Shown: piece by piece, positions 7,045 to 55,541 of the stretch
Layout of the letters: every line of letters begins with the position of its first letter
Position numbering within the stretch: position 1 is the first letter of the stretch
NCBI GenBank assembly: GCA_029776995.1
Contig: JAKOTZ010000197.1
Coordinates: 168-64,167 of the forward strand
DNA length: 64,000 nucleotides
Source: Candidatus Hydrogenedentota bacterium
GTDB lineage: Bacteria; Hydrogenedentota; Hydrogenedentia; Hydrogenedentales; CAITNO01
Direction of reading: 5' to 3'
The notes under the pieces: generated by a model
Told to the model about the DNA's origin: nothing
The model's input: the letters and a program-made list of their open reading frames with translations, nothing else
Database searches by the model: none
Made by a program: the position numbers and the translations under genes

Positions 7045-8691
7045 TTATCCGGTGAAATACAGGTACGCGCCCAGGATCAGCGACAGCACCACCGCCGTGT
7101 GCAGCACATCCCAGCGGTTCCAGCTGGACCGGATTTCCTGGCGTCCCTCTCCGGTTACCGTGGCGTAGGTCAGGTTCTGGATCTGTTTCGGGTCGGGCGG
7201 CGGCGTCAGCAGGCTGACCACCGTAAGCACTGCCGCGCAGAATATGAACAGGAACACGCAGAATTTCAGGAAATTGATCGTACCGAACCACACCAGCGCG
7301 GAGGCCAGCCCCGAGGCCAGCTCCGGATCAGGCAGGAGTCCCGCGTATACCTGGCAGGCCAGTTTGGCCATGCCTACCACAAAGCCGAGGACCAGCGCCG
7401 CCACCGCGCCCGGACCGTTAAGCCGTTTCCAGAACACGCCCATGAAAAACACGGCAGTCATGGGCGGCGCCAGATAGGCCTGAACGCTCTGGAGGTATTC
7501 GTACAGCGCCCCGGAAACCAGCTTCATCGCCGGAATCCACAGCAGCCCCAGCAGGACCACCACGGCGGTGGCTGCCCGCCCCACCTGCACCAGTTCCCGC
7601 TCCGGCGCCTCCGGGCGGTATTTCTTATAAATATCCACCGTGAAAAGCGTGGAACACGAATTAAACAACCCGGAGAGGGAGCTCATCAGCGCGGCCAGCA
7701 GGCCGCCGACCACCAGGCCCCGGATTCCCGGCGGAAGCAGCTGGGATACCAGCTCCGGAAAGGCCTGGTCCGGCCTCGACAGCGTAATCATGCCTTTCTG
7801 GTTCAGCGCGTAGGCGATCATACCCGGAATGATGAACAGAAACACCGGGGTGAGTTTCAGGTAAGATCCGAAAATCGCGCCGCGGCGCGCGATGGTCAGG
7901 TTGCGGGCGGCCAGGGTCCGCTGGACGATATACTGGTCCGTGCACCAGTACCACAGCCCGACAATCGGCGCCGCGAACAGCATGCCGGGCCATGGAAATT
8001 CCGGATCGCTTGCGGGACGCCACAGGTTGAACATCTGGCTCCCGCAGGTGGCCCGGAGTTCCTGCCAGCCGCCCAGATTGGACAGCCCGATGACCGTCAG
8101 GCTGAGCGAACCCAGGATCAGCACCAGGGTCTGCAGCGCGTCCGTGTATACCACGGCCCGCAATCCCCCGACCATCGTGTATACGCCCGTGATCAGCACC
8201 ACCGCCACCGCCCCGGTCCAGAAGCTGTCCAGGCCGAACAGCCGCAGCTCCGGCATCAGCGTGGCGATGACCACCCCGCCGGCATACACGGTAACGCTGA
8301 CTTTGGTAAATACGTACGCCACCAGGCTTACCAGCGACAGGATCCATCGGGCTGTCGGGCTGAAGCGCCGCTCCAGGAATTCGGGCATGGTGAACACCCC
8401 GGACCGGTAATAGAACGGCACCAGTACCCAGGCCAGCACGAGCAGGCACCAGGCGTGCAGCTCCTAATGCGCCATGGCCACCCCGCTTTTGGCGCCGGAT
8501 CCGGCCAGCCCGACCAGATGTTCGGATCCGATATTGGAGGCGAACAGCGAAGCTCCCACGGCGAACCAACCAACGTTGCGGCCCGCCAGAAAGTATTTTT
8601 CGGCAGTGTCCTGGCGCCGCGACGCCCACCAGGCTACGCCAGCCACGCCCACGAAATACGCCAGAATTACCGCCCAGTCCAGTAATGACAT
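7045..8691 (-). pseudogene. Sodium:solute symporter (SSS/SGLT family) interrupted by a single in-frame TAG at 8464-8466. It is either a pseudogene or a site of UAG read-through.
   Basis: ORFs 8464..8691 and 7045..8439 are in the same frame. The joined translation (...[55 protein letters not shown]) follows the SGLT N-terminal consensus without a gap, and there are no frameshifts. Confidence 0.8.
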
Positions 8692-13708: not shown

Positions 13709-14782
13709 TCAGCGGATAGGCACTTCCCGGTCTTTTGCGGATGACCGATAAATTGCGTCGATAATCTTCTGCACCATCAGCGATTCTTCGGGTTTCACCA
13801 GAACCGGCAGGTCCTGTTCCACGCAGGCGCAGAAATGGCGCACCTCCCGGCGGTGGCCGTCTTCTTTGGACAGCCAGTCCCAGGTGGTGCGGGTCAGCGA
13901 GTTATGGTCCGCGCCGAAGAGTCCGGGCGGGTTGGTGCTGATGCCGCCCTTATCCCCAAGGATAAAAACGGATTCCAGCTCTTTCTCGATATTGGCGGCC
14001 CAGGAAACGCAAAGGTTCAGGGTCAGACCGCCTTCGCAGCGGATCAGCGCCACGGCGTAGTCTTCCACGTCAAATTCCTGCGGTTTGTAGAGGATGGGCC
14101 AGTCCGCGTTGAACAGGTCTTTCCGGTCTCCGAACTTCCGGTATACCTTTCCGAAAGCCGCCACGGGTTTGGGGAAATTCATCAGCCACATGGCCAGGTC
14201 GATCACGTGCACGCCGATGTCAATCAGCGGTCCGCCAAGCGACTCGGCGGCAATGTGGAATTTACCCCATCCCGGGATGCCCCGGCGACGCATCCAACGG
14301 GCTTCGGCCGTGTAGATCTCTCCCAGCGCGCCGGACGCGGCCACTTCTTTCAGCTTTTCGGAGAGCGGATCGAATCGGAGGTACTGGGCGACCATCAGTT
14401 TCCGCCCGTTTTTCCGGGCGGCGGCGATCATGGCCTCGCATTCCCGGGCGTTCATGGCCATGGGCTTTTCCACCAGCACGTGCGCGCCGGCGCGCAGCGC
14501 GTCAATGGTTACCGGCGCGTGCAGGCGGTTCTGGGTACAGATGTCCACAATGTCAAAAGTCTTTTTTCGGAACATTTCCTTATAGTCAGAAAATACCTCT
14601 GCGGCCGGGCACGTGGCCGCTTCGGCTTCGCACCGGTCCACGAGAATATCGCACAGGCCGGTTACCTGGACCCGGCCTTCCGCTTCCAGTTCCCGCCAGT
14701 AGGGAAGATGCTGTTCCCGGGCGATGGCGCCCACGCCTACCACGCCTACCCGCAGGGGCGGTTTCTTTTTTCCTGTAGCCAT
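13709..14782 (-). CDS. Gfo/Idh/MocA family NAD(P)-dependent oxidoreductase
   Basis: N-terminal Rossmann motif VGVVGVGAIAR and an EKPMA motif. Confidence 0.8.
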   Translation of the reverse strand: MATGKKKPPLRVGVVGVGAIAREQHLPYWRELEAEGRVQVTGLCDILVDRCEAEAATCPAAEVFSDYKEMFRKKTFDIVDICTQNRLHAPVTIDALRAGAHVLVEKPMAMNARECEAMIAAARKNGRKLMVAQYLRFDPLSEKLKEVAASGALGEIYTAEARWMRRRGIPGWGKFHIAAESLGGPLIDIGVHVIDLAMWLMNFPKPVAAFGKVYRKFGDRKDLFNADWPILYKPQEFDVEDYAVALIRCEGGLTLNLCVSWAANIEKELESVFILGDKGGISTNPPGLFGADHNSLTRTTWDWLSKEDGHRREVRHFCACVEQDLPVLVKPEESLMVQKIIDAIYRSSAKDREVPIR

Positions 14783-16575: not shown

Positions 16576-17436
16576 ATGGTTGATTATGAAGCGCGAATGA
16601 CCTTTACCGAGCATCTGGCCGAACTGCGCATGCGCCTGATCCGTTCCCTGTTCGCGCTGGGCGTGGGCGTTATCCTGTGCTATGTGGTATCGGACCAACT
16701 GATTGTGCTGCTGGCCAGCCCGCTCGCTCCGCTCGGGGAAACAGGCATCATTTCCTCGGCCCCCTCTGAAACCCCTGCCGATGCGGCGAAACCGGAAGGC
16801 GCCTCCCCATCTCCGCCGGATACCGCGCCTGCCCAGTCAGCGCCGGTCCGCCAGGTCGAGTGGACGGTACTTAACCCGCTGGAATTCGTGATCGTCAAGT
16901 TCAAAGTGGCCGGCTACGGCGGTTTTCTCTTCGCGCTGCCGTTTGTCATTTGGCAGTTCTGCGCTTTCGTGTTTCCCGGGCTGCTGCCCCACGAAAAACG
17001 GGTAATGAAAATCCTGATTTTCGGGTGCAGTATCCTGGCGGTAGCAGGCGTATCCGTGGCTTATTTCGGCGTGTTTCCCCTGGTGCTACCCTATCTGCTG
17101 GAATGGACCCTCCCCTTCATCAAAACCCAGCTGCGGCTGAACGAAACGCTTGACATCATCATAAAGCTCATGGCCGCCTTTGCCGTGGCTTTCCAGTTTC
17201 CCATGGCCGTGCTGATTCTGGTTTACATGGACCTGCTTACCCCACAGAAACTGCGTGAATTCAGGAAATTCGCTATTGTTGGCATGGCAGTGGCTTCAGC
17301 GGCGCTGACGCCGCCGGATGTCTTTTCCATGGCCATCATGCTGACGCCATTGCTGCTGTTTTACGAAGCCAGTATAATCCTTTCATATCTCGTTGTGCGG
17401 CGGCGGAAACAGATGAATTCTTCAGGCGCCGGATAA
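16576..17436 (+). CDS. tatC: Twin-arginine translocase subunit TatC
   Basis: FTEHLAELRMRL signature and six transmembrane segments. There is a Pro/Ala-rich insertion of about 50 aa in the first periplasmic loop. Confidence 0.85.
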   Translation: MVDYEARMTFTEHLAELRMRLIRSLFALGVGVILCYVVSDQLIVLLASPLAPLGETGIISSAPSETPADAAKPEGASPSPPDTAPAQSAPVRQVEWTVLNPLEFVIVKFKVAGYGGFLFALPFVIWQFCAFVFPGLLPHEKRVMKILIFGCSILAVAGVSVAYFGVFPLVLPYLLEWTLPFIKTQLRLNETLDIIIKLMAAFAVAFQFPMAVLILVYMDLLTPQKLREFRKFAIVGMAVASAALTPPDVFSMAIMLTPLLLFYEASIILSYLVVRRRKQMNSSGAG

Positions 17437-17448
17437 GGAACCGCATCC

Positions 17449-17943
17449 GTGTTTGACATGGGTATCGGCATGGGCGAAATGCTCTTCGTGGCGGTGATCG
17501 CCCTGATTGTGCTGGGTCCGGAAAAATTTCCGGACTATGCCAAGCTTTTTATCCGGGCCAGCCGGGACCTGCGCGGATATTTCAATGAGATCAAAACGGA
17601 AATCGCCAAAGAAGTCAATCCCATCAAAAAAGAGATCGATACACTAAGCCGACAGGATCCGGAAAAGCTGATTGACGCCCTGGCGGGAACGTCCGCTTCG
17701 GATGAAGGCGAATATGGCAGGCCGCCCGCCGGTGATTCGTCCGGTTCTCCGAAGACAGACACGGATACGCAGGCGTCCGGCGTGCCCAACGGCGGCGTTA
17801 TGGAAGGGGCGGGGGCGGCCTATACCACCGAAAACCAGAATGCGCCGTCTGCGCCGCCATCCGATGCTGCGGCATCCGCCGGACAAGATGAGGACGATCC
17901 TTACGATTTTGAGAAAAATCCGCCGCCGGAACGGCTCGACTGA
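17449..17943 (+). CDS. tatA: TatA/TatB family Sec-independent translocase protein
   Basis: The N-terminus (GIGMGEMLFVAVIALIVLGPEKFP) is a transmembrane helix plus hinge typical of TatA/B. It has a long acidic tail. Confidence 0.8.
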   Translation: MFDMGIGMGEMLFVAVIALIVLGPEKFPDYAKLFIRASRDLRGYFNEIKTEIAKEVNPIKKEIDTLSRQDPEKLIDALAGTSASDEGEYGRPPAGDSSGSPKTDTDTQASGVPNGGVMEGAGAAYTTENQNAPSAPPSDAAASAGQDEDDPYDFEKNPPPERLD

Positions 17944-17954
17944 AGGATTTTCCC

Positions 17955-18959
17955 GTGGATACAACGCAATTGATGGAATACTCGGGCCTGGTCAATGGCA
18001 TTGCCAATGCTTACAGGCGTTCCCAGGTCCTGTTTGTTGCGCTGGAAGGCAACGTCTTCGGCCTGATCGCCGAAGGGCGCGATACGGCCGAGGCGGTGGC
18101 GGCGTGCGCCGGATGGTCGGTCCGGGGCGCGCGCATGCTGCTGGACGGACTCGTGGCCCTCGAACTGCTGGAGAAAGAAAACGGCAGATACCGAAACAGT
18201 CCCGCCGCTGAGGCCTGTCTGGTGCCGGGCGCTCCCGCGTGGCAGGGGGAGATTATCCGGCATACCCGCGCCAGCTGGAACGCCTGGTCCGAACTTGAAA
18301 CCTGTGTCCGCACCGGAACCTGCGCGGGCCATGGGGAAAACCGCAGGAAGGGGCAGGACCTCCGCCATTTTATCCTGGGAATGAAAAACATTGCGTCGCT
18401 CAGCGCGGCCCAGGTGCTGGATGCCGTTGACCTGAGCCGCTACCGCTGCATGCTGGACCTGGCCGGCGGTCCGGGCACCTACACCATCGCATTCCTGCAG
18501 CGTCACCCAGCCATGCGGGCCGCCCTCCTGGACCGCCCCGAAGTCATTGACATTGCCCGGGAGGAAGTCTCCGCCGCCGGCCTGGCCGACCGCATCGCCT
18601 TCATTCCCGGCGACTGTTTCACCGTGCCGTGGGAGGGACCTTACGACCTGGTATTCATGTCAAATATCATTCACAGCTTCAGCTTTGAACAGAACGCGGA
18701 ACTGGTCCGGACCGCTTTCCAGGCGCTGATGCCCGGCGGAACGCTGATCATCAAGGATTTTCTGCTCGAAAACGACCGTTCCGGTCCGCCTTACGGCCTG
18801 ATGTTCGCGCTCCAGATGCTCGTGCATACCCCTGCCGGAGATACGTATACCTTTGCGGATACCGCCGCCTGGACGGATGCGGCCGGGTTCAGGCCGGGAC
18901 GGGCCGTGCCGATTACCCCCCAGACCCGGCTCTGGATCGCGGACCGGCCGGCGGAGTAG
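17955..18959 (+). CDS. Class I SAM-dependent O-methyltransferase
   Basis: SAM motif LDLAGGPGTY and an N-terminal dimerisation/winged-helix region. Confidence 0.75.
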   Translation: MDTTQLMEYSGLVNGIANAYRRSQVLFVALEGNVFGLIAEGRDTAEAVAACAGWSVRGARMLLDGLVALELLEKENGRYRNSPAAEACLVPGAPAWQGEIIRHTRASWNAWSELETCVRTGTCAGHGENRRKGQDLRHFILGMKNIASLSAAQVLDAVDLSRYRCMLDLAGGPGTYTIAFLQRHPAMRAALLDRPEVIDIAREEVSAAGLADRIAFIPGDCFTVPWEGPYDLVFMSNIIHSFSFEQNAELVRTAFQALMPGGTLIIKDFLLENDRSGPPYGLMFALQMLVHTPAGDTYTFADTAAWTDAAGFRPGRAVPITPQTRLWIADRPAE

Positions 18960-18971
18960 GCCTGTCAGCCC

Positions 18972-19655
18972 ATGAGTTCCCGGCCGCCGGTTTTCCATGC
19001 CGTGACCGCCACGGCCCAGGAGTGGCGGCGCGTGCTGGAGCATCTGCCAATTGCCCTGCTCCCGCTCGGATCGACCTGCTTCCACGGATATCATCTCCCC
19101 TACGGCACCGATCCTTTAATAACCGCCGCCGCGGGCGAACACCTGCTGAAACGGTTCGGCGGCATGCTTTTTCCGGCGCTTCCCTTTCCGGAATCCGAAT
19201 CCGCCGCGGCCGTGGTAAACCATGCCGTCAGCGGGATGCTGGAATGCGGTTTCCGCCTGGTTATCGTTCTCGGCCCGCCCTGCCGGGACCTCGGCAGTTT
19301 CGCGTTATCCGGTATTCCGGACGGAATCCTGCCGGGAAACAGCGTCATATGCACTACGCTTTGGGAAATCCTGAAAGGCGGCGTCTGCGCGGAGCTGGGA
19401 AGCACGCTCGAGACTTCCCTGATGATGCGCCTGCATCCGTCGCTCGTAAGGCTGCCGGCGCTGGATGATCCGGCTTACGGTATCCAGGGGATTCAGGGCT
19501 CACCTCCTCAGCTGACCGCTTCTCCCCAGCAGGGAAGAATCTGGTTTGACGCCGCGCTGGATATCCTTACCGACATGGTTCATGACGCGCTCGATGGGGA
19601 ATCCGTCAAACCCGCATGGTATTATGCCCATAAACGCGGTGAAATGATTCCTTGA
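18972..19655 (+). CDS. Creatininase (creatinine amidohydrolase) family protein
   Basis: LPLGSTCFHGYHLPYGTD matches the creatininase-family metal-binding signature. Confidence 0.65.
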   Translation: MSSRPPVFHAVTATAQEWRRVLEHLPIALLPLGSTCFHGYHLPYGTDPLITAAAGEHLLKRFGGMLFPALPFPESESAAAVVNHAVSGMLECGFRLVIVLGPPCRDLGSFALSGIPDGILPGNSVICTTLWEILKGGVCAELGSTLETSLMMRLHPSLVRLPALDDPAYGIQGIQGSPPQLTASPQQGRIWFDAALDILTDMVHDALDGESVKPAWYYAHKRGEMIP

Positions 19656-22078: not shown

Positions 22079-23371
22079 TCAGATCAGCGGCATTTCCCCA
22101 GGCACGGCCACCGGCGGCACCGGGACATCTCCCATCTCGGGATGCTTCGGCGGCGTCAGGTCCAGTTTAGATTCCTTCAGGACAAAGTCCCAGGTGACCT
22201 CTTTCCCGGTGTAGGCTGACATCCGTCCCATGATGGCGGTCAGCGTGCTTTCCGTGACCTGTCGGGCCTCGTTCAGGGGCAGATCCTGGCGGATGGCCTC
22301 GATCAGGTGCGTGTGTTCGAGCACATAGGGATCCGCGTTTTCACCGGCATACTGGATAGTCCGCCCGTCGCGCAGGGTCAGCCCTTTACCGGGGTGGCCG
22401 GACCCCAGTGTTCCCGTGATGTATTCTTCCACCCGTTTATCCGTATCCTTCATCTGCCGGCACAGGCTCTGCACGCGGATGCCTCCGGGATATTCATATT
22501 CCACGGAAAAATGGTCGAAAATGTGCCCGTACACCGGATCGGTACGCTGCTGCCGTCCTCCCATGCCCAGGCACTTCACGGGATGGCTTTTCAGCGCCCA
22601 GTTCACCACGTCCAGATTGTGCACGTGCTGCTCCACGATATGGTCACCGGACAGCCAGGTGAAATAGTTCCAGTTCCGCAGCTGCCATTCCATGTCAGAC
22701 CACCCCGGTTCACGGGGCACGCCGGGATAATAGTCATAATCCCCCACCCAGTAGGCGGACGCGGCAACAATTTCGCCCAGCGCCCCCTGATGAATCTGCT
22801 CGATCAGGTACCGGTAAGGCGGCTGGTGGCGCCGCTGGGTGCCCGCGGCGACCTTCAGGCCTTTCTGTTCCGACAGTTCCGCGGCCTGGAGCATCCGGCG
22901 CGCTCCCGCGGGACAGACCGCCACCGGTTTCTCCATGAACACGTGCACCCCTTTGGCCACGGCCGCCTCGAAATGGTCCGGCCGGAATGCCGGCGGCGCG
23001 CACAGCAGCACAATGTCCACGCCGCTGTCCAGCACGCCATGGATGGCGTCAAACCCCGCAAAGCATCGGTCCGCCGTCACGTCGGCCTTGTCTCTCTAGG
23101 CGGCCATTTTTTGCATGGCTTCCCGGGCCCGTTCCGGAAACACATCGCCGACCGCTGTTATGCAGACATTGGCCGCCGCGTCCACGCAGTTCCGGGCCGC
23201 TCCCAGGCCGCGTTTCCCGCACCCCACCAGGCCTACCCGCAGTTTTGCCTCCGACTCGCCGCGCGCGGTCCGCAACACCGCGAACGTGGACACCGCCGCC
23301 GTAACCGTACCGCCAACCAGAAAATCCCGACGCGTCACGATGCTCATCTTTTTGCTCCTTGTTTCCGCCAT
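22079..23371 (-). pseudogene. TAT-signal Gfo/Idh/MocA oxidoreductase (GH109-like) interrupted by a single in-frame TAG at 23096-23098
   Basis: The N-terminal ORF carries an RRDFLVGG TAT signal and a Rossmann motif (LRVGLVGCGKRG). It is in the same frame as the 333-aa ORF, and the joined sequence reads ...EAMQKMAA*RDKADVTADRCFAGFDA..., continuing into the conserved core. Confidence 0.8.
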
Positions 23372-23493: not shown

Positions 23494-23569
<76 letters not shown>

Positions 23570-27449: not shown

Positions 27450-27899
27450 TCAGCCGGCGGAGTCCTGCTGTTCCGGGCCGGGATGTTCCGGCAGGGCTGG
27501 CGGCCGTTCCCGCCGGCGCTGGTAACGGAGCCGGGTCAGGACCCTGCGAAGTTCGCGGTCCAGAATTACCCCGGCCAGGGCATAGGCCTGGTCAGCGGGG
27601 GTGCTGCCTCCGGCCATTGCCTCCCGGAAGGCGTGTTCCGATATGTCCAGCACGTACAGTGCGGTCATCAGACGGTTGGGGCGGTTCAGCATCATCTCCA
27701 GCACCCGCCGGGCCAGCGCGCGCCGTACCGCTTCTTCAAACGAAGCCTGCTCATCCTGGCCGGGCAGGGAATGATCCAGGGCCACCTGCCATTTCCGGCC
27801 CAGCTCCCGGATCAGGGCCTGGCGGGCCTCCGCTTCGGGATCCGGCGGTTCTTCCGGCAAAAGAGGGTTTTCCGGGGAGGGCTCCTCAGGGCCAGTCAC
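27450..27899 (-). CDS. Hypothetical protein
   Basis: ORF only; 149 aa. Confidence 0.35.
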   Translation of the reverse strand: MTGPEEPSPENPLLPEEPPDPEAEARQALIRELGRKWQVALDHSLPGQDEQASFEEAVRRALARRVLEMMLNRPNRLMTALYVLDISEHAFREAMAGGSTPADQAYALAGVILDRELRRVLTRLRYQRRRERPPALPEHPGPEQQDSAG

Positions 27900-28926
27900 A
27901 GCGGATTTCCTCGCGCCGGCCGCTGGCCGCGCTGTCGTACATGGCCTGGATTACCGCCATGTACCGGATGCCGTCCTCGAAATCGGGATGGTAGGGGGTT
28001 CCCTCGCGGACCGCGGCGATGAAATCCGCTTCCACCCGCCAGTTCTGGACGTCATACGCCTCTTCCGGAAGCGGCGTGATCACCTGGTCCCGGCGGGTTC
28101 CGGAGACGGTCAGCCGGTCTGCCAGGGCGTCATACCGCATGACCCCCCGGTCGCCAAACAGCATGAGCGTCTCTTCCGTCCGGTCGCATACCCCGGAGAT
28201 GAAATACCCCGCGGTGACTTCATGGTCGAAGCCGGCTAGGGCCGTGATCTGGTCCGGGATCCGGATTTCCAGTTCCCCCCCCTGGCCGTCCGGGCGCCGG
28301 GGCGTGAAGATCCGGGTTTCCGCGCTGACCCACCGCGTCATGCCCAGCCACCGGTGCAGGACCTCAATCCACATGCCCAGGGTCTGCATGTTCAGGCCCG
28401 ACAGGCGGTGGTCTTTGCGCCAGGTTACGGGGGCCGACGGGTCCCGCCAGGTGGACTGTGTGCTGTGGACGCATACGTGCCGCGGGTTGCCGATGGCGCC
28501 TTCCTGGAGCAGCCGGAACACGGTCCTGTCCACGCTCAGGCCGAACGGCACCGGGCACAGGCCGGCCACTTTTCCGGACTGCCGGGCTGCCGCCAGCATG
28601 GCCCGGGCGTCTTCCAGATCCATGGCCATCCGCGCCTGGCAGAACACGTGTTTTCCCGACTGGAGCGCCGCCACCGACACCTCGCGGTGCAGGTAGGGCC
28701 AGGTCCCTACAAACACAATATCTATATCATCCCGCGCCACCAGTTCCTGCCATGAGTCGCACACCACCGGAATGCCGAATTCCCGCGCCGCTTTCTCAGA
28801 CGATTCCCGGGTCCGGTTCGCCACCGCCCGCAGCTCGATCCCCGGCAGCTTTTTCAGTCCCGGCACATGCCGCTGGCGGCAGATGCCGCCCAGGCCCACA
28901 AAACCGATCCGAAGTGTATTCATCAA
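27886..28926 (-). CDS. Gfo/Idh/MocA family oxidoreductase
   Basis: IGFVGLGGICRQRH Rossmann motif. Confidence 0.8.
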   Translation of the reverse strand: MMNTLRIGFVGLGGICRQRHVPGLKKLPGIELRAVANRTRESSEKAAREFGIPVVCDSWQELVARDDIDIVFVGTWPYLHREVSVAALQSGKHVFCQARMAMDLEDARAMLAAARQSGKVAGLCPVPFGLSVDRTVFRLLQEGAIGNPRHVCVHSTQSTWRDPSAPVTWRKDHRLSGLNMQTLGMWIEVLHRWLGMTRWVSAETRIFTPRRPDGQGGELEIRIPDQITALAGFDHEVTAGYFISGVCDRTEETLMLFGDRGVMRYDALADRLTVSGTRRDQVITPLPEEAYDVQNWRVEADFIAAVREGTPYHPDFEDGIRYMAVIQAMYDSAASGRREEIRCDWP

Positions 28927-31339: not shown

Positions 31340-32620
31340 ATGAGCGCGAAAATCCTGTTTGATACCTTGAACTGGCGCGGGTTCGTGAACCAGTACACCG
31401 ATCCCGCGCTGCCCGAACTGCTGGAACGGGAAAAGCCTTTTACCCTGTACTGCGGCTTTGACCCCACCGCGGACAGCCTGCACATCGGCAGCCTGCTGCC
31501 GATCCTGGGGCTCGCCCATTTCCAGCGGGCCGGCCACCGGCCCATCGCCCTGGTGGGCGGAGGGACGGGGCTGATCGGAGACCCCAGTTTCAAGGCCCAG
31601 GAACGGGCCATGCTCAGCAGGGAGCAGGTCGAGCTGAACGCCCAGGGGATCCGCCGCCAGCTCGAACGCTTCCTCGATTTTGAAGGCGCCCATGCCGCGC
31701 TGCTGCTCAATAATGCCGACTGGCTCTGCGCCCTGCCACTGATTGATTTCCTGCGGGATGTGGGCAAGTGCTTTACGGTCAATGTCATGCTTTCCCGGGA
31801 GAGCGTCCGCCAGCGGATTGAAGATCGCGAGCACGGCATGTCGTTCACCGAATTTTCCTACAGCCTCCTGCAGGCCTACGACTTCTTCCACCTGCACGGG
31901 CATTACGGGTGCCGCCTGCAGATCGGCGGCAGCGACCAGTGGGGCAACATCGTGTCCGGCATCGACCTGATCCGGCGCAAAACAGGCGCGGAAACCTACG
32001 GCCTGACCTTTCCCCTGGTCACCAAGGCGGACGGCTCCAAGTTCGGCAAAACCGAGAGCGGAAACGTCTGGCTCGATCCCGCCAAAACATCCCCTTACCG
32101 TTTCTACCAGTTCTGGATCAACCAGGCGGATGCCGATGTCGGCCGGTACCTGCGCTATTTCACGTTCCTGGAACAGGAGGAAATCGAAGCCCTCGAACAG
32201 GCCCATGCCGAAGCGCCGCACCTGCGCCAGGCCCAGAAAAAACTCGCCGAAGAAGTAACCCGCATGGTCCACGGCCCGGACGCCCTCCAGGGCGCGCTCA
32301 GGGCCACCGCGGCCCTGTTTGGCGGCGACCTGCGCGGCCTCGATGAGCCCACGCTGCTCGAGGTGTTCGAGGAGGCGCCCAGTTCCACGATCCCCCGGGA
32401 GCGGTTCGGAGCGGGCGCCCTGGTGGACGTGTTGGCCGAGGCCGGCGTGTTCAGCAGCAAGGGTGAGGCCCGCAGGCTTATCCGGAATGGCGGGCTTTAC
32501 CTCAACGGGGAAAGAATAGACCGCGAGGATTTCCCCTGGAACGCGGAATGCCTGCTCACCGCTTCGCTGGCCGTGCTCCGGACGGGAAAGAAAAATTATC
32601 ACCTGCTCAAAGTCCAGTGA
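31340..32620 (+). CDS. tyrS: Tyrosine--tRNA ligase
   Basis: HIGSLLP (HIGH) motif, KFGKT (KMSKS) motif, and a C-terminal S4 domain. Confidence 0.9.
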
Positions 32621-32713: not shown

Positions 32714-33766
32714 ATGAGTATATATTCTGACACCGACATTGTGGACCTGCGGAGCGATACGGTTACCCGGCCTTCTCCGGGCATGCGCTGTGCCATGGCC
32801 GATGCCGAAGTGGGGGATGACGTCTTCGGCGAGGACCCCACGGTGAACCGGCTGCAGGCGGTTGCGGCCGAAATGCTGGGCAAGGAAGCCGCCCTGTTCG
32901 TGCCCACGGGCACCATGGCCAACCTGCTCGGCTTCCTGTCCCAGACCCGGCCGGGAGATGCCGTGCTCCTCAGCGAGGACGCCCACCCGTTCCGTTACGA
33001 ACGCGCGAACCTGGCCATGGTGGGCGGGCTCCTGCCGATCACCCTTCCGGGGCAGTGGGGGAAAATCACTCCGGAAACGCTGCGCGGCCGTATCGTGGTC
33101 AGCGATGACCCCCATCTGGCCAACACTACCCTGGCTTCCCTGGAGAATACCGTGAACCGCGGCGGCGGCGCCTGCTACACCGTTGAGGAAACCGAGGCGT
33201 TTTGCGCGGTGGCCCATGAGCACGGCTTGCGCGTGCACTGCGACGGCGCGCGCATATTCAATGCGGCGGTCGCGCTCGGCGTGGAAGCGGCCCGGCTGGC
33301 CCGCCCGTGCGATACGGTGTCCTTCTGCCTGTCCAAGGGGTTGGGGGCGCCGGCCGGTTCCCTGCTGGCCGGTCCCCGGGAAACCGTCGCCCGGGCCCTG
33401 GCTTTCCGCAAGATGCTGGGCGGGGGGATGCGGCAGGCGGGCGTGCTGGCCGCGGCCGGCCTGTACGCGCTGGAGCATCACCTTCGGGACCTCGGCGAAG
33501 ACCACCGGCGCGCCCGGGAATTCCGAGAAGCCCTGGAGCGGGAGGGCGCGGTTTTCCCCATGCCTTCGCCGACCAATATGGTGTATCTCCAGGTGCGGGA
33601 CGCGCGGGCCGTGGTGGATCGGCTGCGGCAGCGCGGCGTGTTGGTCCTGGCCGTCGCGGCGGACAGGATCCGGGTGGTTTTCCACCGGGACATTGATGAT
33701 GCCGGCCTCCGCCGGGCGGTCGAAGCCTTCCGCGCGGTGCTGGCGGAGTCCCAAACCCCATGTTAA
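32714..33766 (+). CDS. ltaE: Low-specificity L-threonine aldolase
   Basis: The N-terminus (DLRSDTVTRPS ... DDVFGEDPTVNRLQ) and a PLP-fold core. Confidence 0.85.
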   Translation: MSIYSDTDIVDLRSDTVTRPSPGMRCAMADAEVGDDVFGEDPTVNRLQAVAAEMLGKEAALFVPTGTMANLLGFLSQTRPGDAVLLSEDAHPFRYERANLAMVGGLLPITLPGQWGKITPETLRGRIVVSDDPHLANTTLASLENTVNRGGGACYTVEETEAFCAVAHEHGLRVHCDGARIFNAAVALGVEAARLARPCDTVSFCLSKGLGAPAGSLLAGPRETVARALAFRKMLGGGMRQAGVLAAAGLYALEHHLRDLGEDHRRAREFREALEREGAVFPMPSPTNMVYLQVRDARAVVDRLRQRGVLVLAVAADRIRVVFHRDIDDAGLRRAVEAFRAVLAESQTPC

Positions 33767-42596: not shown

Positions 42597-44237
42597 TCAG
42601 AACGAACTGATCAGTCCGTCTGACGCCTCATAAGACGGGAACCGGACAATTACCGCCGCGCCGCCTTCCGCCCGGTTGCCCAGTTGGATGGTGCCGTTCA
42701 TCGCTTCCACGACGCGCTGGCAGATGGAAAGCCCCATGCCGGTGCCCCGCGGCTTTTCCGAATAGAAAGGCTCAAACAGTTTATTGATCTTATCGGGCGG
42801 AAAGCCCGGTCCCTGGTCTTCCACCCGTATTTCCAGCGCGTTTCCCGAGCGGCTGATTCTGACAATGGCTTCGCCGCGGCCGTCCATTGCTTCCATCGCG
42901 TTGTTCAGCAGGTTCATCAGCACCTGTTTCAGCCGCTGGGGGTCTCCCGCCACGCGGCATTCTGTTCCTTCCGGGATGATTTCCACCCGGATAGTCCCTT
43001 CGGGAAAGCGGTACCGGCACGCCTCGGCCGTTTCCATGGCCAGCGCGCACACGTCCACGGGATCCCATACCGTGATCTGGCCCGATCGGCTGAATTCAAG
43101 GAATCCCCCTACCACGCTGTTCAGATGTTCCGATTCCCGGTGGATCATATGGGCCAGGCGCCGGGTCAGTTCTCCTGTTTCCGGAATTCGGGCGAGTTCT
43201 TCCGCGGCGCCCCGGATCGTCGTTACAGGGTTCCGGATTTCGTGGGCCAGTTCCGCGGACAGTTCGCCGAGTACCGCCAGGTGGGCGTGGCGCTGCACCT
43301 CCTCCCGCATCCGCGCCATTTCGGTCAGGTCCGAGAAGGAGACGATGAGCAGGTGTTCCTTCCGGTGGTCTGACGGGGAGATCCGGTTTGTGGTCAGACC
43401 GATAACCCGCGTTCCCGACGGCGTTACCGCCCTGAACTCGTGGCTGATGTAGTCAATCTGTTTTTTCAGCGCCGTCAGCACGGGGCATTCCATGCCGGCT
43501 TCCGGCACTAAAACCGTTTCCACGGGTTTCCCCATGCATTTATCCGCGCTGCAGCCCAGGATTCGTTCCGCCGCCTGGTTCATGCCCAGAAGGCGTCCGT
43601 TGGGGTCCACCACCAGGAACCCGTTGTTCATGCGGTCCAGCACGTCGCGCTGGAACTGGGCCATCCGGTTGAGCCAGAAATTCCACAAACCGCTGATGAA
43701 GGCAATCGCGATCAGGCACAGAAAGATCAGCGTCTGGTCGTAGACGTGGAACAGGCGGTCGAGGTCGCCAGCGGGCCACGGGTAGGACGCGCCCCAAAGG
43801 AACAGGGATGAAAGAATCGTGAAAAATACCGCGGGAACCACACCCAGGAACAGCCCCGCCTCAAAGACCACCAGCAGCAGCAGGTACGTGGAGGCTCCTT
43901 TGATGTTGCCCGTAAAGCCGATTACCAGGCACACCAGCGCAAGGTCCAGGAAGATCTGCGCCCAGACCGCCAGGACCGGAAGACGGCTGCGCCGACCCTG
44001 CAGGAAAAGCAGATACGAAGCCCACCCCAGGCAGATAAACCCCGTGCCGAAAATGAATATCTGGAGAAATGGATGGCGCGGCAAAATGGCCGTGAAGGAA
44101 TTGGTCATGGCCATCAGGATGATGAGAATCCGGATCACGGCGGCCGCCGTCAACCAGCGGTGCGGCGCGAAAGGCGAAAGATACAGGTGAGCCGACCGGA
44201 CTCCCGATCCCTGTGATTCCGCCGGCGCGGGTGGCAT
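42597..44237 (-). CDS. Membrane sensor histidine kinase (PilS-like) partnered with the sigma-54 regulator
   Basis: Multi-pass transmembrane N-terminus, a PAS-like region, a HisKA H-box (LSAELAHEIRNP) and an HATPase_c domain. Confidence 0.8.
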   Translation of the reverse strand: MPPAPAESQGSGVRSAHLYLSPFAPHRWLTAAAVIRILIILMAMTNSFTAILPRHPFLQIFIFGTGFICLGWASYLLFLQGRRSRLPVLAVWAQIFLDLALVCLVIGFTGNIKGASTYLLLLVVFEAGLFLGVVPAVFFTILSSLFLWGASYPWPAGDLDRLFHVYDQTLIFLCLIAIAFISGLWNFWLNRMAQFQRDVLDRMNNGFLVVDPNGRLLGMNQAAERILGCSADKCMGKPVETVLVPEAGMECPVLTALKKQIDYISHEFRAVTPSGTRVIGLTTNRISPSDHRKEHLLIVSFSDLTEMARMREEVQRHAHLAVLGELSAELAHEIRNPVTTIRGAAEELARIPETGELTRRLAHMIHRESEHLNSVVGGFLEFSRSGQITVWDPVDVCALAMETAEACRYRFPEGTIRVEIIPEGTECRVAGDPQRLKQVLMNLLNNAMEAMDGRGEAIVRISRSGNALEIRVEDQGPGFPPDKINKLFEPFYSEKPRGTGMGLSICQRVVEAMNGTIQLGNRAEGGAAVIVRFPSYEASDGLISSF

Positions 44238-45322
44238 TACTCCCGCATTCCCTTTTCAACGAGGCTCTGCAACCCCTCCGGATCCATGCTGCGCTTAAAG
44301 GCCATTTCGGCGGTGATTACGCCCCGGCGCATCAGCCGGTAAAGCGACTGGTTCATCGTCATCATGCCCTCGCCTTTGCCGATTTCGATCATCGAGGGGA
44401 TCTGTTCCAGTTTTTCCTGCCGGATCAGCGACCGGATGGCCGTGTTGGGGATCATGATTTCCATCGCCAGTACCCGCCCCAGACCGTCCGCCCGGGGGAT
44501 CAGCTGCTGGACGACCACCCCCTCCAGCACGAAGGACAGCTGGGTGCGCACCTGCGCCTGCTGCGACGACGGAAACACGTCCACGATGCGGTTGATGGTC
44601 TGCAGCGCATCGTTGGTGTGCAGCGTGGCAAAGCACAGGTGGCCCGTTTCCGCCACGGTCAGCGCGGCCTGGATCGTTTCCGGGTCCCGCATTTCGCCGA
44701 TCAGAATCACGTCGGGATCCTGCCGGAGCACGTGTTTAAGCGCCGCGTTGAAACTCTTGGTGTCGGCGCCGACCTCCCGCTGGTTGATCACCGACAGCTT
44801 ATGCGTATGCAGGTATTCAATCGGGTCCTCAATCGTGATGATGTGGCATTTGCGTTCCCGGTTGATCTTGTCCAGAATAGCCGCCAGCGTCGTGGATTTG
44901 CCGCTGCCGGTGGGGCCGCACACCAGCACCAGGCCCAGGGGACGGTAGGCGAAATCGGCTATTACCCGGGGAAGCCCCAGCTGTTCGAAGGAAAGAATTT
45001 CATAGGGAATCGCGCGGAACGCGGCAACCACTGATCCCCGGTCCCGGTACACGTTCAGACGGAAGCGGCTCAGCCCCGCAATCCCGAAGGACAGGTCGCA
45101 CTCCTTTTCATCTTCGAAGTGCGCGATCTGGTCTTCATTCATTACGCTGTAAATCAGGTCGCGCGTCTGGTCAGCGGTGAGAGGCGGGTAATTCTCAATA
45201 GGCTCCAGCGAACCGTGGATCCGGAGCATGGGGGGCGCGCCTACCACAATGTGCAGGTCGCTCGCGCCGTCCTGGATCATCCGGGTCAGCATTTCTTTAA
45301 TACTCAGCACCGGCTGCACCAT
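44237..45322 (-). CDS. pilT: Type IV pilus retraction ATPase PilT
   Basis: Walker A (GPTGSGKSTT), the IITIEDPIE motif and a His box. Confidence 0.9.
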   Translation of the reverse strand: MVQPVLSIKEMLTRMIQDGASDLHIVVGAPPMLRIHGSLEPIENYPPLTADQTRDLIYSVMNEDQIAHFEDEKECDLSFGIAGLSRFRLNVYRDRGSVVAAFRAIPYEILSFEQLGLPRVIADFAYRPLGLVLVCGPTGSGKSTTLAAILDKINRERKCHIITIEDPIEYLHTHKLSVINQREVGADTKSFNAALKHVLRQDPDVILIGEMRDPETIQAALTVAETGHLCFATLHTNDALQTINRIVDVFPSSQQAQVRTQLSFVLEGVVVQQLIPRADGLGRVLAMEIMIPNTAIRSLIRQEKLEQIPSMIEIGKGEGMMTMNQSLYRLMRRGVITAEMAFKRSMDPEGLQSLVEKGMRE

Positions 45323-45422
45323 ACCGTCTTACCTCCGCGATAAAATCTTTGCCACGATGACAATAGTCTACCTGTTTCGCCGGATGGCGCGAAACCTGCC
45401 TTGCCCTGAACCTCACGGCATA

Positions 45423-47144
45423 TCAATCCGCGATGGTATGTTCGAGCACCTGCTCGATCGAAGTCACCCCTCTGGCCGCCTTGGCCAGGCCCGCCTGGCG
45501 CAGGGTCTGCATGCCGCATTTCACGGCGGCTTCCTTGATCTGCTGGCCCGACGCGCGCTTAAGCACCAGCGGCTGGATTTCAGGCCAGTTCAGCATCACC
45601 TCGATGATGGCCGTCCGGCCCTTATAGCCGGTCTCTTTACACTTTGCACAGCCCCGGCCGTGGACAAACTGCGGTTCGGGAATGTAATCGAATCCGTGGT
45701 ACTGGATCCGCTCCAGCACGTCCTCCGGCATGTCAATGGGCTCTTTGCATTCTGAGCAGACCCGTTTCAGCAGGCGTTGCGCCGCCGCCAGCGCGACCGA
45801 CGACTGCACCAGGAACGGTTCCACGCCCATATCAATCAGACGCGGGAAGACGCCCGCCGCGTCATTCGTGTGCAGCGTGCTCAGCACCAGGTGGCCGGTA
45901 AGCGCCGCCTTGACGGCCACGTCTGCGGTTTCGCTGTCGCGGATCTCGCCCACCATCACCACGTCGGGGTCCTGGCGCAGGATCTGCCGCAGCGCCTCCG
46001 CGAAAGTGAACCCGATCTGATGCTTCACCTGTACCTGGTTGACTCCATACAGCTCGTATTCGATCGGGTCTTCTACCGTCACGATGTTCATGTCCGGCGT
46101 GTTAAGCTTATGCAGCGCGCTGTACAGGGTGGTCGTTTTACCGCTGCCCGTCGGACCGGTGAGCAGGATCATCCCGTGGGGCATGTTCAGCGCTTCCTGG
46201 AAGGCGGCCATCGCCTGCGGCTCGAAATCCAGCTTTTCTAGGTCCAGGGTCAGCTGGCTTTGGTCCAGCACGCGGAGCACCACCTTCTCCCCGTATTTGC
46301 AGGGCAGGAACGCCACGCGGAAATCCACGTCCCGGCCTTTGAACCGCATCCGGCAGCGGCCGTCCTGCGGCAGGCGGTGCTCGTCAATCCGGCATCCCGA
46401 CAGGATTTTCAGGCGGGCCACAATATTGGGAAACACGCTTTTCGGCGGCGCTTTGGCCTCTTCCAGTGTCCCGTCCACGCGGTAGCGGATGCGCATGTTC
46501 TTTTCGAACGGCTCGATATGGATATCGCTTGCGCCCCGTTCCAGCGCGTTGAATACGATAAGCCGTGTCAGCTGCTTGATCGGTTCGTCTTCCGCTGATG
46601 ATGCCGTCAGCGAGACGTCTTCAACTTCTTCTTCCGGGGCGTTGACCTCTTCCACTTCAGCCTGGCGGTCCAGCCCCTCGTTGATGGTCTTGAGGATATC
46701 GTCCGCTTTACCGCCGCCGTAATTCTGGTCGATAGCCTGGGTCAGCTCGGACATCACGGCGACCATCGGCTCGATTTCGTGCCCCGTGACAATCCGCAGA
46801 TCATCAATCGCCATAATGTTCAGCGGGTCCACCATGGCCAGGGTGAGCACATCGCCCGTCAGGGACAGCGGCAACACATGGTACTGGCGCGCCAGCGCTT
46901 CCGGAACCGTTTCCAGCACTTCCTTGGGGACCCGGTAATTCAGTACGCGGATGTGCGGAATGCCCAGGTGCTCGCTCAGCGTCACCACCAGGTCTTCTTC
47001 GCTCAGGTATTCTTTTTCGACCAGCAGTTGCGGCAGGCTTTTGCCCGTCCGGCGGTGCAGCGCCAGACATTCTTTGATCTGTTCCGCCGATACCAGCTGT
47101 TCTTCCAGCAGCATGTCTTCCAGTTTTTTGCGCTGTACTTTCAT
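45423..47144 (-). CDS. pilB: Type IV pilus assembly ATPase PilB (GspE family)
   Basis: N-terminal T2SSE_N domain, Walker A (GPTGSGKTTT), and a tetracysteine motif (CxxC ... CxxC). Confidence 0.85.
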   Translation of the reverse strand: MKVQRKKLEDMLLEEQLVSAEQIKECLALHRRTGKSLPQLLVEKEYLSEEDLVVTLSEHLGIPHIRVLNYRVPKEVLETVPEALARQYHVLPLSLTGDVLTLAMVDPLNIMAIDDLRIVTGHEIEPMVAVMSELTQAIDQNYGGGKADDILKTINEGLDRQAEVEEVNAPEEEVEDVSLTASSAEDEPIKQLTRLIVFNALERGASDIHIEPFEKNMRIRYRVDGTLEEAKAPPKSVFPNIVARLKILSGCRIDEHRLPQDGRCRMRFKGRDVDFRVAFLPCKYGEKVVLRVLDQSQLTLDLEKLDFEPQAMAAFQEALNMPHGMILLTGPTGSGKTTTLYSALHKLNTPDMNIVTVEDPIEYELYGVNQVQVKHQIGFTFAEALRQILRQDPDVVMVGEIRDSETADVAVKAALTGHLVLSTLHTNDAAGVFPRLIDMGVEPFLVQSSVALAAAQRLLKRVCSECKEPIDMPEDVLERIQYHGFDYIPEPQFVHGRGCAKCKETGYKGRTAIIEVMLNWPEIQPLVLKRASGQQIKEAAVKCGMQTLRQAGLAKAARGVTSIEQVLEHTIAD

Positions 47145-47234: not shown

Positions 47235-50126
47235 TCACGCCGCAGCTTCCGCACCTAAATGGTTCAACATTTCCTGCGCCATCTCCACGGTCAGGTCCTG
47301 TCCGATCAGTTTCGCGAAGGCCGCAATCTTTTTCAGCGCGCCGGTCATCTTCCGCACGTCGCCCGGAACCCGCATCGCGATGACCCCCAGCACCTCTTCC
47401 GGAACGGCCACGCCCAATTCCGAGGTCCGGTGCCGCAGGATCTTCATGCGCGTTTCCCATTCCGGCGCTTTCAGTTCCGCGACGATCCCGCTGGCAAACC
47501 GTGAAACCAGCCGCTGTTCCAGCAGGCCCAGACGGTCCGGCGCCTTGTCCACCACTATAATAATCTGTCTTTGCTCCTGGTGTAAAGCATTGAAAATATG
47601 GAAAAATTCCTCCTGCGCTTCAACCCTTCCCCCCAGGAACTGGATATCGTCCAGGATCAGCACATCCCAGTGGCAGTAATTCTCCCGGAACGCGTCCAGG
47701 GCGTTTTCGGCGGCGGCTTCCGCCAGGCGGCGGGCAAAGCGGCTTGCTGAAACGTAGCCCACCCGGGGCGGACTTCCTTTTTTTCCCTTTTGCCGCAGGA
47801 TGGCATTGCCGATCGCGCACACCAGATGGGTTTTGCCTGTTCCCACGCTTCCGTAAAGAAACAGCGGATTGTATTCACCCCCCGGGGATTCCGCCACGGC
47901 CTGGGCGATCTTGAAGGTGAACGCGTTGGCCGCCCCGGGGAAAAAGGTTTCAAAGGTCAGCGTCGCCAGCGGCTGTTCCGATTCCAGGGCCGCCAGCATT
48001 TTTTCATCGGCTTCGGCCCAGGCCTGGTCCGCTTCGGCAGACGGGCCGGGAGGGCCGCCAAACGGCGCGACCGACGCCAGCCGTTCTTTTTTCCGGCGGA
48101 CCTGGTCCTGCCGGTTGGCTTCCTCCATCAGGTGGCGTTCCAGCAGTTCAGCCACCTGCCGGGCAGACTGCCCGGCTGCTTCCGCCAGTTGCGCGAGGCG
48201 TTCCTGGCGCTCAGTCTGGTCTGATTTCACGTCGGTCAGGGAGGCCAGGGTTGCTTCAGCGAGCTGGGCCAGGCGGTTTTCCTGCGCTTCCCGGGATGCG
48301 CGCGTTTCCCGGACCACGGTTTCCAGGGCTTCCCGCATGGCTTCCGCCAGCGCGGATTCCCGGGTTTCCGACCGCTCCGCGATGGACGCCACCGCTTCCC
48401 GGACGGCATGCTGCAGCCGTTCCGCCAGCGCGCTCAGGGCTTCCTGTTCCGCCTCGGCGGATTTATCGCGCTGGGTCAGGGCCGCTTTCATCTGGACCAG
48501 CATGGCCGACATGGCCTCTTCGACGGCCGTGCCGACCCCTTCCTGCAGGCTGTGGGCCAGCCTGTCCCAGTCCGGCGGAGCCAGTTCCTGCCGCATGCCC
48601 GACAGCGCTTCCGATGTTTTTTGCAGCGTTTCTCCGACCGGTTCCATCGCGTCCCGAACCGCCGCCTTCACGGCCTCCCGCGTGGCCTGCGCCCAGGATT
48701 CCACATCGATCTGCGGCGGCTGGGGCCGTTCGGCTTCCTGGGCCATCAGTTGCCGGATCGGATCGCTCAGCGCGTTTACCGCGCTGGAGATGGTTCCCGC
48801 CACGGAGTTTTCCAGGTCTTCCGTGAGCTGTTTCAGCGCCTGTTGCAGCGTCGCGCCCTGGTCCGCCGGATCGTTAGCGGCCGGCGGACGGAGGGTTTCG
48901 CTCAGCGGCGCCAAACCGTCCCGCACCGCCTGGGCGACGGCGGTCCGCAAAGCATCCAGGTCCAGCGCGGAGGGGACAGCCGGAGCGTTTTGTTCGCGGG
49001 GCTCCGGGGGTGGCGCCGCGTTCTCCCTAACCCGGACGGCTTCAGCGACCGCTTCCCGGATTTCTGAAGCCAGCGATGAAAACGACGCGCTGATCTGTTC
49101 CTGAAACGCATCAAACGCGGGCCTGAGCAGTGCCGCGGGATCCGCCGGCGCGGCCGGAGCCGCAGGTTCCGCGGGAGCAGGCTGCAGGGCGGATTTCAGT
49201 TCGATGAGGCTTTCCCGGAATGCCGCCTGCATGGCCGTCGCCAGGCTTCTGGCCAGTGCGTCCGGGTCCATCGGCGGCGCCATGGCCGCCGCATCGTGGG
49301 CCGGTTGCGGCGGGGCGATCCGGATAGGTTTTTCGGCGTGTTCCTCCCGGGGGATCTCCGCTGGAGGCGTTTCGGTATACGTTTCCAGTTCCGCGGACGC
49401 GGCGCGCTCTGATTCCCGGATCGTGATTTTTTCCGGAGGGGCCGCGGGCGCTGCCGCGGGCGGGGTTTCCGCCTTCGGCGGAGGGGCGGCCGTTCCTCCG
49501 GCCGCGTGGGGTATGCCAAACGAGGCCGCATCTTTTTTGGGTTTCTTCCCGAACTGCCGTTCCACCACCGTGGCGAAGTGGTCCCAGTCGCACAGGATCG
49601 GTTTAATCCGCAGGTTGGGGCACAATCCCCGCACTTCATCCAGGGCAGCCTCGTCGAGGGGATCGATCATGGCCACGGTCAGGATACGCCCCAACTTGTC
49701 TATGGGCAGCAGTTTCAGCCGCAGGCAGACTTCTTCCGGCACCAGTTCCAGCGCCTGCTTATTGATGCTGTAGTCCAGCAGGTTCAGGTGGGGAATATTG
49801 AACTGTTTGACCACGAACTGCCGAATTGTGTCGTGGGTAACGTACCCCAGGGCCACAAGGCTCTGGCCCAGAAATCCCCCGTGTTCCTGCTGGTGCCTGA
49901 GTCCCTCAGCCAGCTGCTGGGCGGTTATGATGCCTTCTTCCACCAGCATCTCACCCAGCTTTTTCCGTTCCGGCGCCTGGCCGGATGGGTGCGGGACCGC
50001 GCGGCTCATTACCATTACCGGGCTCTCCGATGGCACGTATTCCAGTACGCGTATTGTAGCACGGCTGATCCTCTCGCGGGGAAGGTTTATGGTCGTGGTT
50101 CGGTCGGTATCCCGGCGGATTTCCAA
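47235..50126 (-). CDS. Large fusion protein: N-terminal GspE-N/MshEN-like domain, a long Ala/Pro/Glu-rich coiled-coil linker, and a C-terminal DnaA domain-III-like AAA+ ATPase (Hda-like, lacking DnaA domain IV)
   Basis: N-terminal motif KKLGEMLVEEGIITAQQLAEGLRHQ. The C-terminus reads TFETFFPGAANAFTFKIAQAVAESPGGEYNPLFLYGSVGTGKTHL ... ILDDIQFL, matching DnaA domain III, but there is no HTH after it. The true start may be about 50009 (MSRAV...). Confidence 0.7.
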   Translation of the reverse strand: MEIRRDTDRTTTINLPRERISRATIRVLEYVPSESPVMVMSRAVPHPSGQAPERKKLGEMLVEEGIITAQQLAEGLRHQQEHGGFLGQSLVALGYVTHDTIRQFVVKQFNIPHLNLLDYSINKQALELVPEEVCLRLKLLPIDKLGRILTVAMIDPLDEAALDEVRGLCPNLRIKPILCDWDHFATVVERQFGKKPKKDAASFGIPHAAGGTAAPPPKAETPPAAAPAAPPEKITIRESERAASAELETYTETPPAEIPREEHAEKPIRIAPPQPAHDAAAMAPPMDPDALARSLATAMQAAFRESLIELKSALQPAPAEPAAPAAPADPAALLRPAFDAFQEQISASFSSLASEIREAVAEAVRVRENAAPPPEPREQNAPAVPSALDLDALRTAVAQAVRDGLAPLSETLRPPAANDPADQGATLQQALKQLTEDLENSVAGTISSAVNALSDPIRQLMAQEAERPQPPQIDVESWAQATREAVKAAVRDAMEPVGETLQKTSEALSGMRQELAPPDWDRLAHSLQEGVGTAVEEAMSAMLVQMKAALTQRDKSAEAEQEALSALAERLQHAVREAVASIAERSETRESALAEAMREALETVVRETRASREAQENRLAQLAEATLASLTDVKSDQTERQERLAQLAEAAGQSARQVAELLERHLMEEANRQDQVRRKKERLASVAPFGGPPGPSAEADQAWAEADEKMLAALESEQPLATLTFETFFPGAANAFTFKIAQAVAESPGGEYNPLFLYGSVGTGKTHLVCAIGNAILRQKGKKGSPPRVGYVSASRFARRLAEAAAENALDAFRENYCHWDVLILDDIQFLGGRVEAQEEFFHIFNALHQEQRQIIIVVDKAPDRLGLLEQRLVSRFASGIVAELKAPEWETRMKILRHRTSELGVAVPEEVLGVIAMRVPGDVRKMTGALKKIAAFAKLIGQDLTVEMAQEMLNHLGAEAAA

Positions 50127-54707: not shown

Positions 54708-55541
54708 ATGTCGCGTCTCGTTGTGCTCGTGGAAAATACCGCGTCCGGACGGGGGATACTGGCGGAGCACGGCCTGTCCTTCTGGATAGAGCACGGTGCG
54801 CGGCGGGTGCTTTTTGACGCGGGCCAGGGGTATGCCCTGCGGCACAATACCCAACAATTGGGCATCCCCCTGGAAACGGCTGATGCCCTGGTCTTGAGCC
54901 ACGGGCATTATGACCACACGGGGGGACTGGGGGAGGTCCTGGACGAAATCCCGGCCGCCAGGATATTCTGCCATCCCTTCGCCCTCTCATCGAGGTATGT
55001 CCGTGCCGCGGATGGTTCAGTCCGGGAGATTGGCATGCCCCGCGGGGTGGCGGAGAAAATCCGGGTGCTGGAAAATACCGTCTGGACGCAGGCTCCGACG
55101 GAGATCTTTCCCGGGCTCAGTGTGACAGGTCCCATCCCCAGGGCGAACGGCTTCGAGGATTCCGGCGGGGCGTTTTATTAGGATGAGGCCTGTCGGCGCC
55201 CCGACGCGTTCCCGGACGACCAGGCCCTTTTTCTGGAGGCCAAACAGGGCACATGGGTACTGCTGGGATGCGCCCACGCGGGAGTAATCAACACCCTGAA
55301 TTATGTCCGTGAACTTACCGGAAACCGTCCCCTCTGTGGAGTTATCGGGGGCATGCATCTGGTCTCCGCGGATCAGGAACGGTTGGGCCGTACGGTGGAG
55401 GAGCTGTGCCGCATGGGGGTGCGCTGTCTGATGCCGGCTCACTGTACGGGGTTCCACGCCATGGCGCGGTTATGGCAGGAGTTCCCGGAGGAGTATATTC
55501 CCTGTCCGGCCGGCGCCGCGGTTGATTTGGATGCTTTATAA
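54708..55541 (+). pseudogene. MBL-fold metallo-hydrolase interrupted by a single in-frame TAG at 55179-55181
   Basis: SHGHYDHTGG motif upstream of the stop. After the TAG the same frame continues without a stop (DEACRRPDAFPDDQALFLEAKQGTWVLLGCAHAGVINT ... MPAHCTGF), matching the conserved C-terminal half of this family. Confidence 0.8.

Follow-up and report, generated by a model that had tools for sequence, protein, structure and literature searches.

An in-frame amber codon in a predicted Tat-exported Gfo/Idh/MocA oxidoreductase gene of a Hydrogenedentota strain, probably a very recent nonsense mutation

Layout and family of the interrupted gene

The minus strand of the window (the whole 64-kb stretch of DNA that was analyzed, from an uncultured Candidatus Hydrogenedentota bacterium) carries a Gfo/Idh/MocA oxidoreductase gene with a twin-arginine (Tat) signal at 22079..23347. 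The gene comprises 422 codons followed by a TGA and is interrupted at codon 84 by an in-frame amber TAG (23096..23098, minus strand). Translation of 22079..23371 on the minus strand gives one frame in which this TAG is the sole internal stop (...EAMQKMAA, the stop, then RDKADVTADRCFAGFD...), which confirms the original prediction that the codon splits a single oxidoreductase frame. When the two fragments are joined, they equal the 422-aa protein of a sibling strain (P0242) with the stop as the only difference, and the claim that the gene carries no lesion besides the amber codon is thereby borne out as well.

The probable true start is the ATG at 23345..23347 (minus strand). The start region reads aAGGAGcaaaaagATG, with an AGGAG at about 23355-23359, approximately 8 nt 5' of the ATG at 23347 (MSIVTRRDF...). 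Because of this upstream AGGAG, the ATG at 23347 is preferred over the one at 23371, which shortens the N-terminal fragment from 91 to 83 aa. The same two fragments are annotated in the public record, namely P0244 (83 aa), which begins at ATG 23347, and P0245 (333 aa), which begins at the GTG at 23078..23080 (minus strand). Of the two ORF lengths given earlier, the 333 aa thus stand, while the 91 aa are replaced by the 83 aa that follow the AGGAG-preceded ATG. The GTG, displayed as M in P0245, lies inside the intact gene and encodes an internal Val there, as seen in P0242; it had already been regarded, correctly, as an artefact of ORF calling.

Both sequence motifs that had been assigned to the upstream ORF could be located there. 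The twin-arginine motif T-R-R-D-F-L-V (T5-R6-R7-D8-F9-L10-V11) lies at 23315..23335 (minus strand), and 18 homologues all retain its residues R6, R7 and F9. The glycine-rich NAD(P)-binding loop GLVGCGKRG (G39-x-x-G42-x-G44-x-x-G47) occupies 23207..23233 (minus strand), 5' of the TAG, and G39, G42, G44 and G47 are invariant as well. As expected of a Tat signal, the N-terminus TRRDFLVGGTVTAAVSTFAVL shows a motif of the S/T-R-R-x-F-L-K type followed by a hydrophobic stretch, and the TAT_signal family (PF10518) is precomputed for several homologues. P0242, which equals the window gene save for the stop, matches the GFO_IDH_MocA Rossmann domain (PF01408) with 51.5 bits against a cut-off of 24 bits, and GFO_IDH_MocA_C3 (PF22725) at residues 178-316 with 32 bits against 27. 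The protein therefore combines the Rossmann domain, the glycine-rich loop and the C-terminal domain of the Gfo/Idh/MocA family, and the enzyme is predicted from these features to be a Tat-exported periplasmic oxidoreductase of this family. The NCBIfam equivalogs gave no assignment to one particular enzyme (inositol 2-dehydrogenase, glycoside 3-dehydrogenase or others): all matches fell far below their cut-offs, the best being TIGR04380 with 65.6 bits against 355.

The precursor of the glucose-fructose oxidoreductase of Zymomonas mobilis (PDB 1h6a) shows the same architecture of twin-arginine signal, Rossmann NAD(P) domain and Gfo/Idh/MocA C-terminal domain. The similarity to 1h6a is weak but significant (E = 4.5e-4); in contrast to the Zymomonas gene, to which it is only distantly similar, the window gene is interrupted. 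Genes for a predicted exporter, TatC (16576..17436, plus strand) and a TatA/B-like protein (17449..17943, plus strand), are found about 5 kb from the interrupted gene. Two further Gfo/Idh/MocA paralogues occur in the same 64 kb, at 13709..14782 and 27886..28923 (both minus strand), and represent a redundancy that could make the loss of one copy tolerable.

The position of codon 84 bears directly on whether the two ORFs belong to one gene. The PF01408 domain covers residues 36-159 of P0242 and hence includes the codon, and alignments to solved inositol dehydrogenases continue across it. The best 120 homologues listed are all single proteins of 373-451 aa, none of which is interrupted; their residues in the codon-84 column are W, M, L, I or E. 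Together with the unbroken 422-aa sibling protein, these results agree with the earlier proposal that the upstream and downstream ORFs form one gene, and the homologues encoded as two separate genes that would have spoken against it were not found among those listed. The upstream fragment (83 aa, or 91 aa as first called) makes no biological sense by itself, as had also been argued. Both ORFs should accordingly be merged in the annotation and flagged as a single disrupted gene.

Origin of the amber codon and other nonsense alleles

Three sibling contigs, L007 (JGI 3300010327), L008 (SRR20247609) and L009 (SRR20247626), share 99.87-99.90% nucleotide identity with the window across the gene and carry TGG (Trp) at codon 84, corresponding to a C at 23097 on the plus strand. 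The protein records P0242, P0243 and P0241 (the last a partial NCBI entry) read MAAWRDKADVTADR at this place and are otherwise identical residue for residue. A more distant relative (L001, 95.4% nucleotide identity) likewise has TGG. Where it departs from the window inside the gene, the differences are mostly spaced by three bases and share a codon phase, a pattern which indicates long-term purifying selection until very recently. Since the siblings carry TGG, the TAG arose very recently through one G>A transition at 23097, which, among the assemblies compared, occurs in that of the window alone. Compared with L001, a double change from TGGGGA to TAGAGA seems to have occurred; in fact only one change belongs to the window, as the AGA (Arg) is common to all of the 99.9% siblings. 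The locus thus shows what is expected of a pseudogene created by a nonsense mutation: an intact orthologue exists in very close relatives, its sense codon is one substitution from a stop, and codon 84 lies inside the Rossmann domain.

The whole window was scanned symmetrically for any stop codon with 50 stop-free codons of coding-like usage on each side. Five sites were obtained, comprising three in-gene TAGs, one TAA and one TGA. The TAA at 33764 is a true gene end, where a lyase gene stands next to that of a HAD hydrolase, and the TGA at 42597 is the true end between a histidine kinase and a sigma-54 regulator. Besides the TAG at 23096-23098 (site 2), there remain a TAG at 8464..8466 (site 1, minus strand) in a sodium:solute symporter gene (7045..8691) and a TAG at 55179..55181 (site 3, plus strand) in an MBL-fold hydrolase gene (54708..55541). 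Site 1 derives from TAC, which is retained in L002 and L003 and encodes a Tyr that is invariant in the family; L004, L005 and L006, each an independent assembly, share its TAG. Site 3 derives from CAG (Gln), as found in L037-L041, and lies in a variable column; its TAG is present in the window and in L010-L013 (four assemblies). Because each recurs in four to five independent assemblies, the TAGs at sites 1 and 3 are considered real segregating polymorphisms.

Each of the three TAGs thus has its own substitution (C>G, G>A and C>T, respectively) and its own ancestral residue: Tyr (TAC) at site 1, Trp (TGG) at site 2 and Gln (CAG) at site 3. Their contexts, catTAGgag, gccTAGaga and tatTAGgat, have no motif in common, and a basecalling error tied to a shared context, such as a methylation motif, was rejected on these grounds. 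The alleles are also unlinked: JGI 3300010327 combines the TAG of site 1 with sense codons at the two other sites (TGG and CAG for sites 2 and 3, respectively). A fourth nonsense allele affects a different stop codon. At 48567..48569 (minus strand), within the gene 47235..50015, the window has TGG, as does L038, while the siblings L010 (GCA_035401585.1) and L011 have TGA. This gene (minus strand) is a single long ORF in L038 and in each of the 21 further Hydrogenedentota loci examined, and the opal allele implies that nonsense alleles in the population are not specific to amber. Its product of 926 aa has an MshEN N-terminus, a long middle part rich in Ala, Pro and Glu, and a DnaA-like AAA ATPase C-terminus; the gene adjoins two T2SSE/pilus ATPase genes (44237..47144).

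A mutation model based on the codon usage of the window puts the nonsense share of random coding substitutions at 2.8-3.5% and the TAG share of the nonsense outcomes at 45-56%. The probability that three of three nonsense changes are TAG is therefore approximately 0.09-0.18. As the genome has 62% G+C, TAG is the most accessible stop, and the observation that only amber codons occur carries little weight. Over about 45 kb, the differences between the window and its siblings comprise 25 synonymous and 26 missense changes, four nonsense changes and three intergenic ones. The many synonymous differences (random errors would give a ratio of about 1:3) show that the strains really differ and that this is not noise. 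Missense changes stand at roughly one third of what neutrality would predict; nonsense changes number four among 55 coding SNPs (7%), compared with about three expected without selection and about one if they were purged like missense changes. Strains of about 99.9% identity thus segregate for no fewer than four nonsense alleles, three of them amber and one opal, and in this Hydrogenedentota species such alleles seem to reach the frequency of unselected mutations, small as these numbers are. This apparent lack of purging suggests dispensable accessory genes or relaxed selection; stops that are tolerated are a less likely cause.

TAG as a terminator in the window

TAG remains an ordinary terminator. 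The 54 gene models of the window end in TGA (35), TAA (14) or TAG (5), which does not fit a reassignment that leaves TAG unused as a terminator. In three of the TAG-terminated genes, encoding MntP, an O-methyltransferase and an FtsX-type permease, the Pfam profiles finish just 5' of the TAG. Reading through the terminal TAGs would append 33-231 residues, and in the case of the O-methyltransferase it would cause an in-frame fusion with the next gene, a member of the creatininase family. This pair superficially resembles a fourth in-frame TAG, since the O-methyltransferase gene (17955..18959, plus strand) is followed after its TAG by 12 nt and then, in the same frame, by the creatininase-family gene (18972..19655, plus strand); the ends of the Pfam domains identify them as separate genes.

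No tRNA with a CUA anticodon is encoded in the 64 kb. The sole tRNA of the window is a tRNA-Ala (GGC) at 23494..23569 (minus strand), which is not a suppressor, and an Rfam scan of the whole window yielded nothing besides it. The TAG at 23096-23098 with its surroundings and 3' flank (141 nt) folds no better than shuffled sequences (z = -0.95). Pyl families are absent from the Pfam scans of the window ORFs, with no pylT, pylS or pylBCD within the 64 kb, and a literature search returned no link of Hydrogenedentota or Hydrogenedentes to pyrrolysine or stop-codon recoding. The window also contains a tyrosyl-tRNA synthetase gene (31340..32620, plus strand) with one private missense difference from the sibling L007 (I5/T5), for which no connection to the amber codons was found.

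Interpretation of the in-frame stop

We favor, with a probability of roughly 0.8, the view that a nonsense mutation of very recent date, private to the strain, created the TAG at 23096-23098 and with it a loss-of-function allele, and that the codon is not recoded. The TAG codon is most likely left untranslated and the product inactive. A ribosome stopping at codon 84 would release 83 residues, corresponding to the signal peptide and the opening beta-alpha-beta unit of the Rossmann fold. Were translation to resume at the GTG five codons 3', the product would instead be a cytoplasmic fragment that lacks both the export signal and the GxGxxG dinucleotide-binding loop. Because the truncated and the re-initiated product would each miss essential parts, the enzyme would be lost with either outcome, and the gene would represent a nascent pseudogene, as yet without secondary decay. 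Two observations sit less easily with this explanation, namely that the four nonsense alleles are as many as expected under no selection at all, and that two of the ambers persist in four to five independent assemblies; either the genes concerned are dispensable or the stops are somehow tolerated. The most serious competitor, though an unlikely one, is an error of sequencing or consensus calling, or the assembler's choice of a minor variant, in which case the organism would really have TGG at this codon and an intact gene. It would account for the TAG being found here only in the window's own record, with Trp in the three sibling contigs and the three further protein records, and it gains from the thin coverage of sibling contigs (2.5-3 according to the names of L005, L011 and L039) and from the nature of the change, as G:C>A:T is the class produced by cytosine deamination damage. 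The other private differences of the window, however, comprise 9 synonymous and 6 missense changes (counted where at least two siblings agree), which fits real divergence, and the two other in-frame TAGs of the contig are each reproduced in three to four other assemblies. Two truly separate genes, an exported peptide of 83 or 91 aa and a 333-aa enzyme, have next to no probability: the idea comes from the ORF calls, and it is refuted by the homologues, all single proteins among the best 120 listed, as well as by the single Pfam Rossmann domain and the alignments to solved structures, which bridge the junction, and by the identical, unbroken protein of the siblings.

The remaining alternatives would both have the TAG translated. 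Programmed recoding, either as pyrrolysine or through a genome-wide sense reassignment, draws on the three in-frame TAGs in 64 kb, and it was hinted at in the original prediction, where the remark that the stop was again amber implied something genome-wide such as decoding of TAG. The hint is not supported, as TAG terminates five of the 54 gene models and the in-frame TAGs replace Tyr, Trp and Gln instead of one consistent amino acid; the opal allele of the siblings and the large share of TAG among random nonsense outcomes weaken it further. Sense codons at the TAG positions in 99.9%-identical strains, and thus a UAG that is not conserved among orthologues, the lack of any Pyl family in the Pfam scans of the window ORFs and of a structured element 3' of the TAG, and the silence of the literature searched on Hydrogenedentota leave recoding extremely improbable. 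Amber suppressor tRNAs of the E. coli supE/supF type allow in-frame TAGs to be tolerated while TAG continues to end most genes. A lineage tolerant of amber codons through such a tRNA (for example Tyr-inserting, with a CUA anticodon, and chromosomal or prophage-borne) or through a weak RF1, with partial read-through, would explain why all three in-gene stops are TAG, with no in-gene TGA or TAA in the window, why two of the amber alleles persist across several samples and why nonsense alleles appear unpurged. A Tyr-inserting suppressor would even fit all three sites, since site 1 replaces an invariant Tyr and sites 2 and 3 lie in variable columns. Against this stand the absence of a CUA-anticodon tRNA from the 64-kb window and the long or fusing extensions that read-through of the TAG-terminated genes would give; an opal allele segregates too, so that tolerance of nonsense is not amber-specific, and mutation alone would be expected to give three of three TAGs 9-18% of the time. 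Moreover, the amber alleles do not share one haplotype, as JGI 3300010327 illustrates, and the TAG-bearing symporter haplotypes show two missense changes against one synonymous, which hints at relaxed constraint. Amber suppression is therefore very unlikely and unsupported as an explanation; if it were true, the TAGs accumulating in functional genes would show how the capture of a stop codon begins naturally in a bacterium that lives freely.

Read as a nonsense mutation, the lesion belongs to a well-known class of loss-of-function alleles and is nothing new in kind. The window gene resembles other bacterial nonsense-mutation pseudogenes in its one-base change from sense to stop by a G:C>A:T transition, in being otherwise intact and conserved, in the intact alleles of near-identical strains and in the occurrence of several such alleles per species. 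It differs from what is typical of free-living bacteria in the high density of four nonsense alleles in about 45 kb at 0.1% divergence, and from typical nonsense pseudogenes in that assemblies from several samples share two of the alleles. With pyrrolysine decoding, as known from methylamine methyltransferase genes, the gene shares an in-frame UAG in an otherwise intact reading frame. Unlike in those systems, the UAG is not conserved (the siblings have TGG), the gene does not encode a methyltransferase, no pylT or pylS is present in the window, no 3' structure is found and three UAGs replace three different residues. The systems of the supE/supF type differ from the present case in possessing a suppressor tRNA, which the 64-kb window lacks, and the opal allele that also segregates here sets it further apart. 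Several in-frame ambers within one window can mimic recoding, and it is the comparison of strains that reveals them as independent single-base nonsense alleles.

Across L010-L012 and L037-L040, all four allele combinations of the sites 55179 and 56152 are present. This violation of the four-gamete rule indicates recombination between strains or mosaic consensus sequences assembled from metagenomes.
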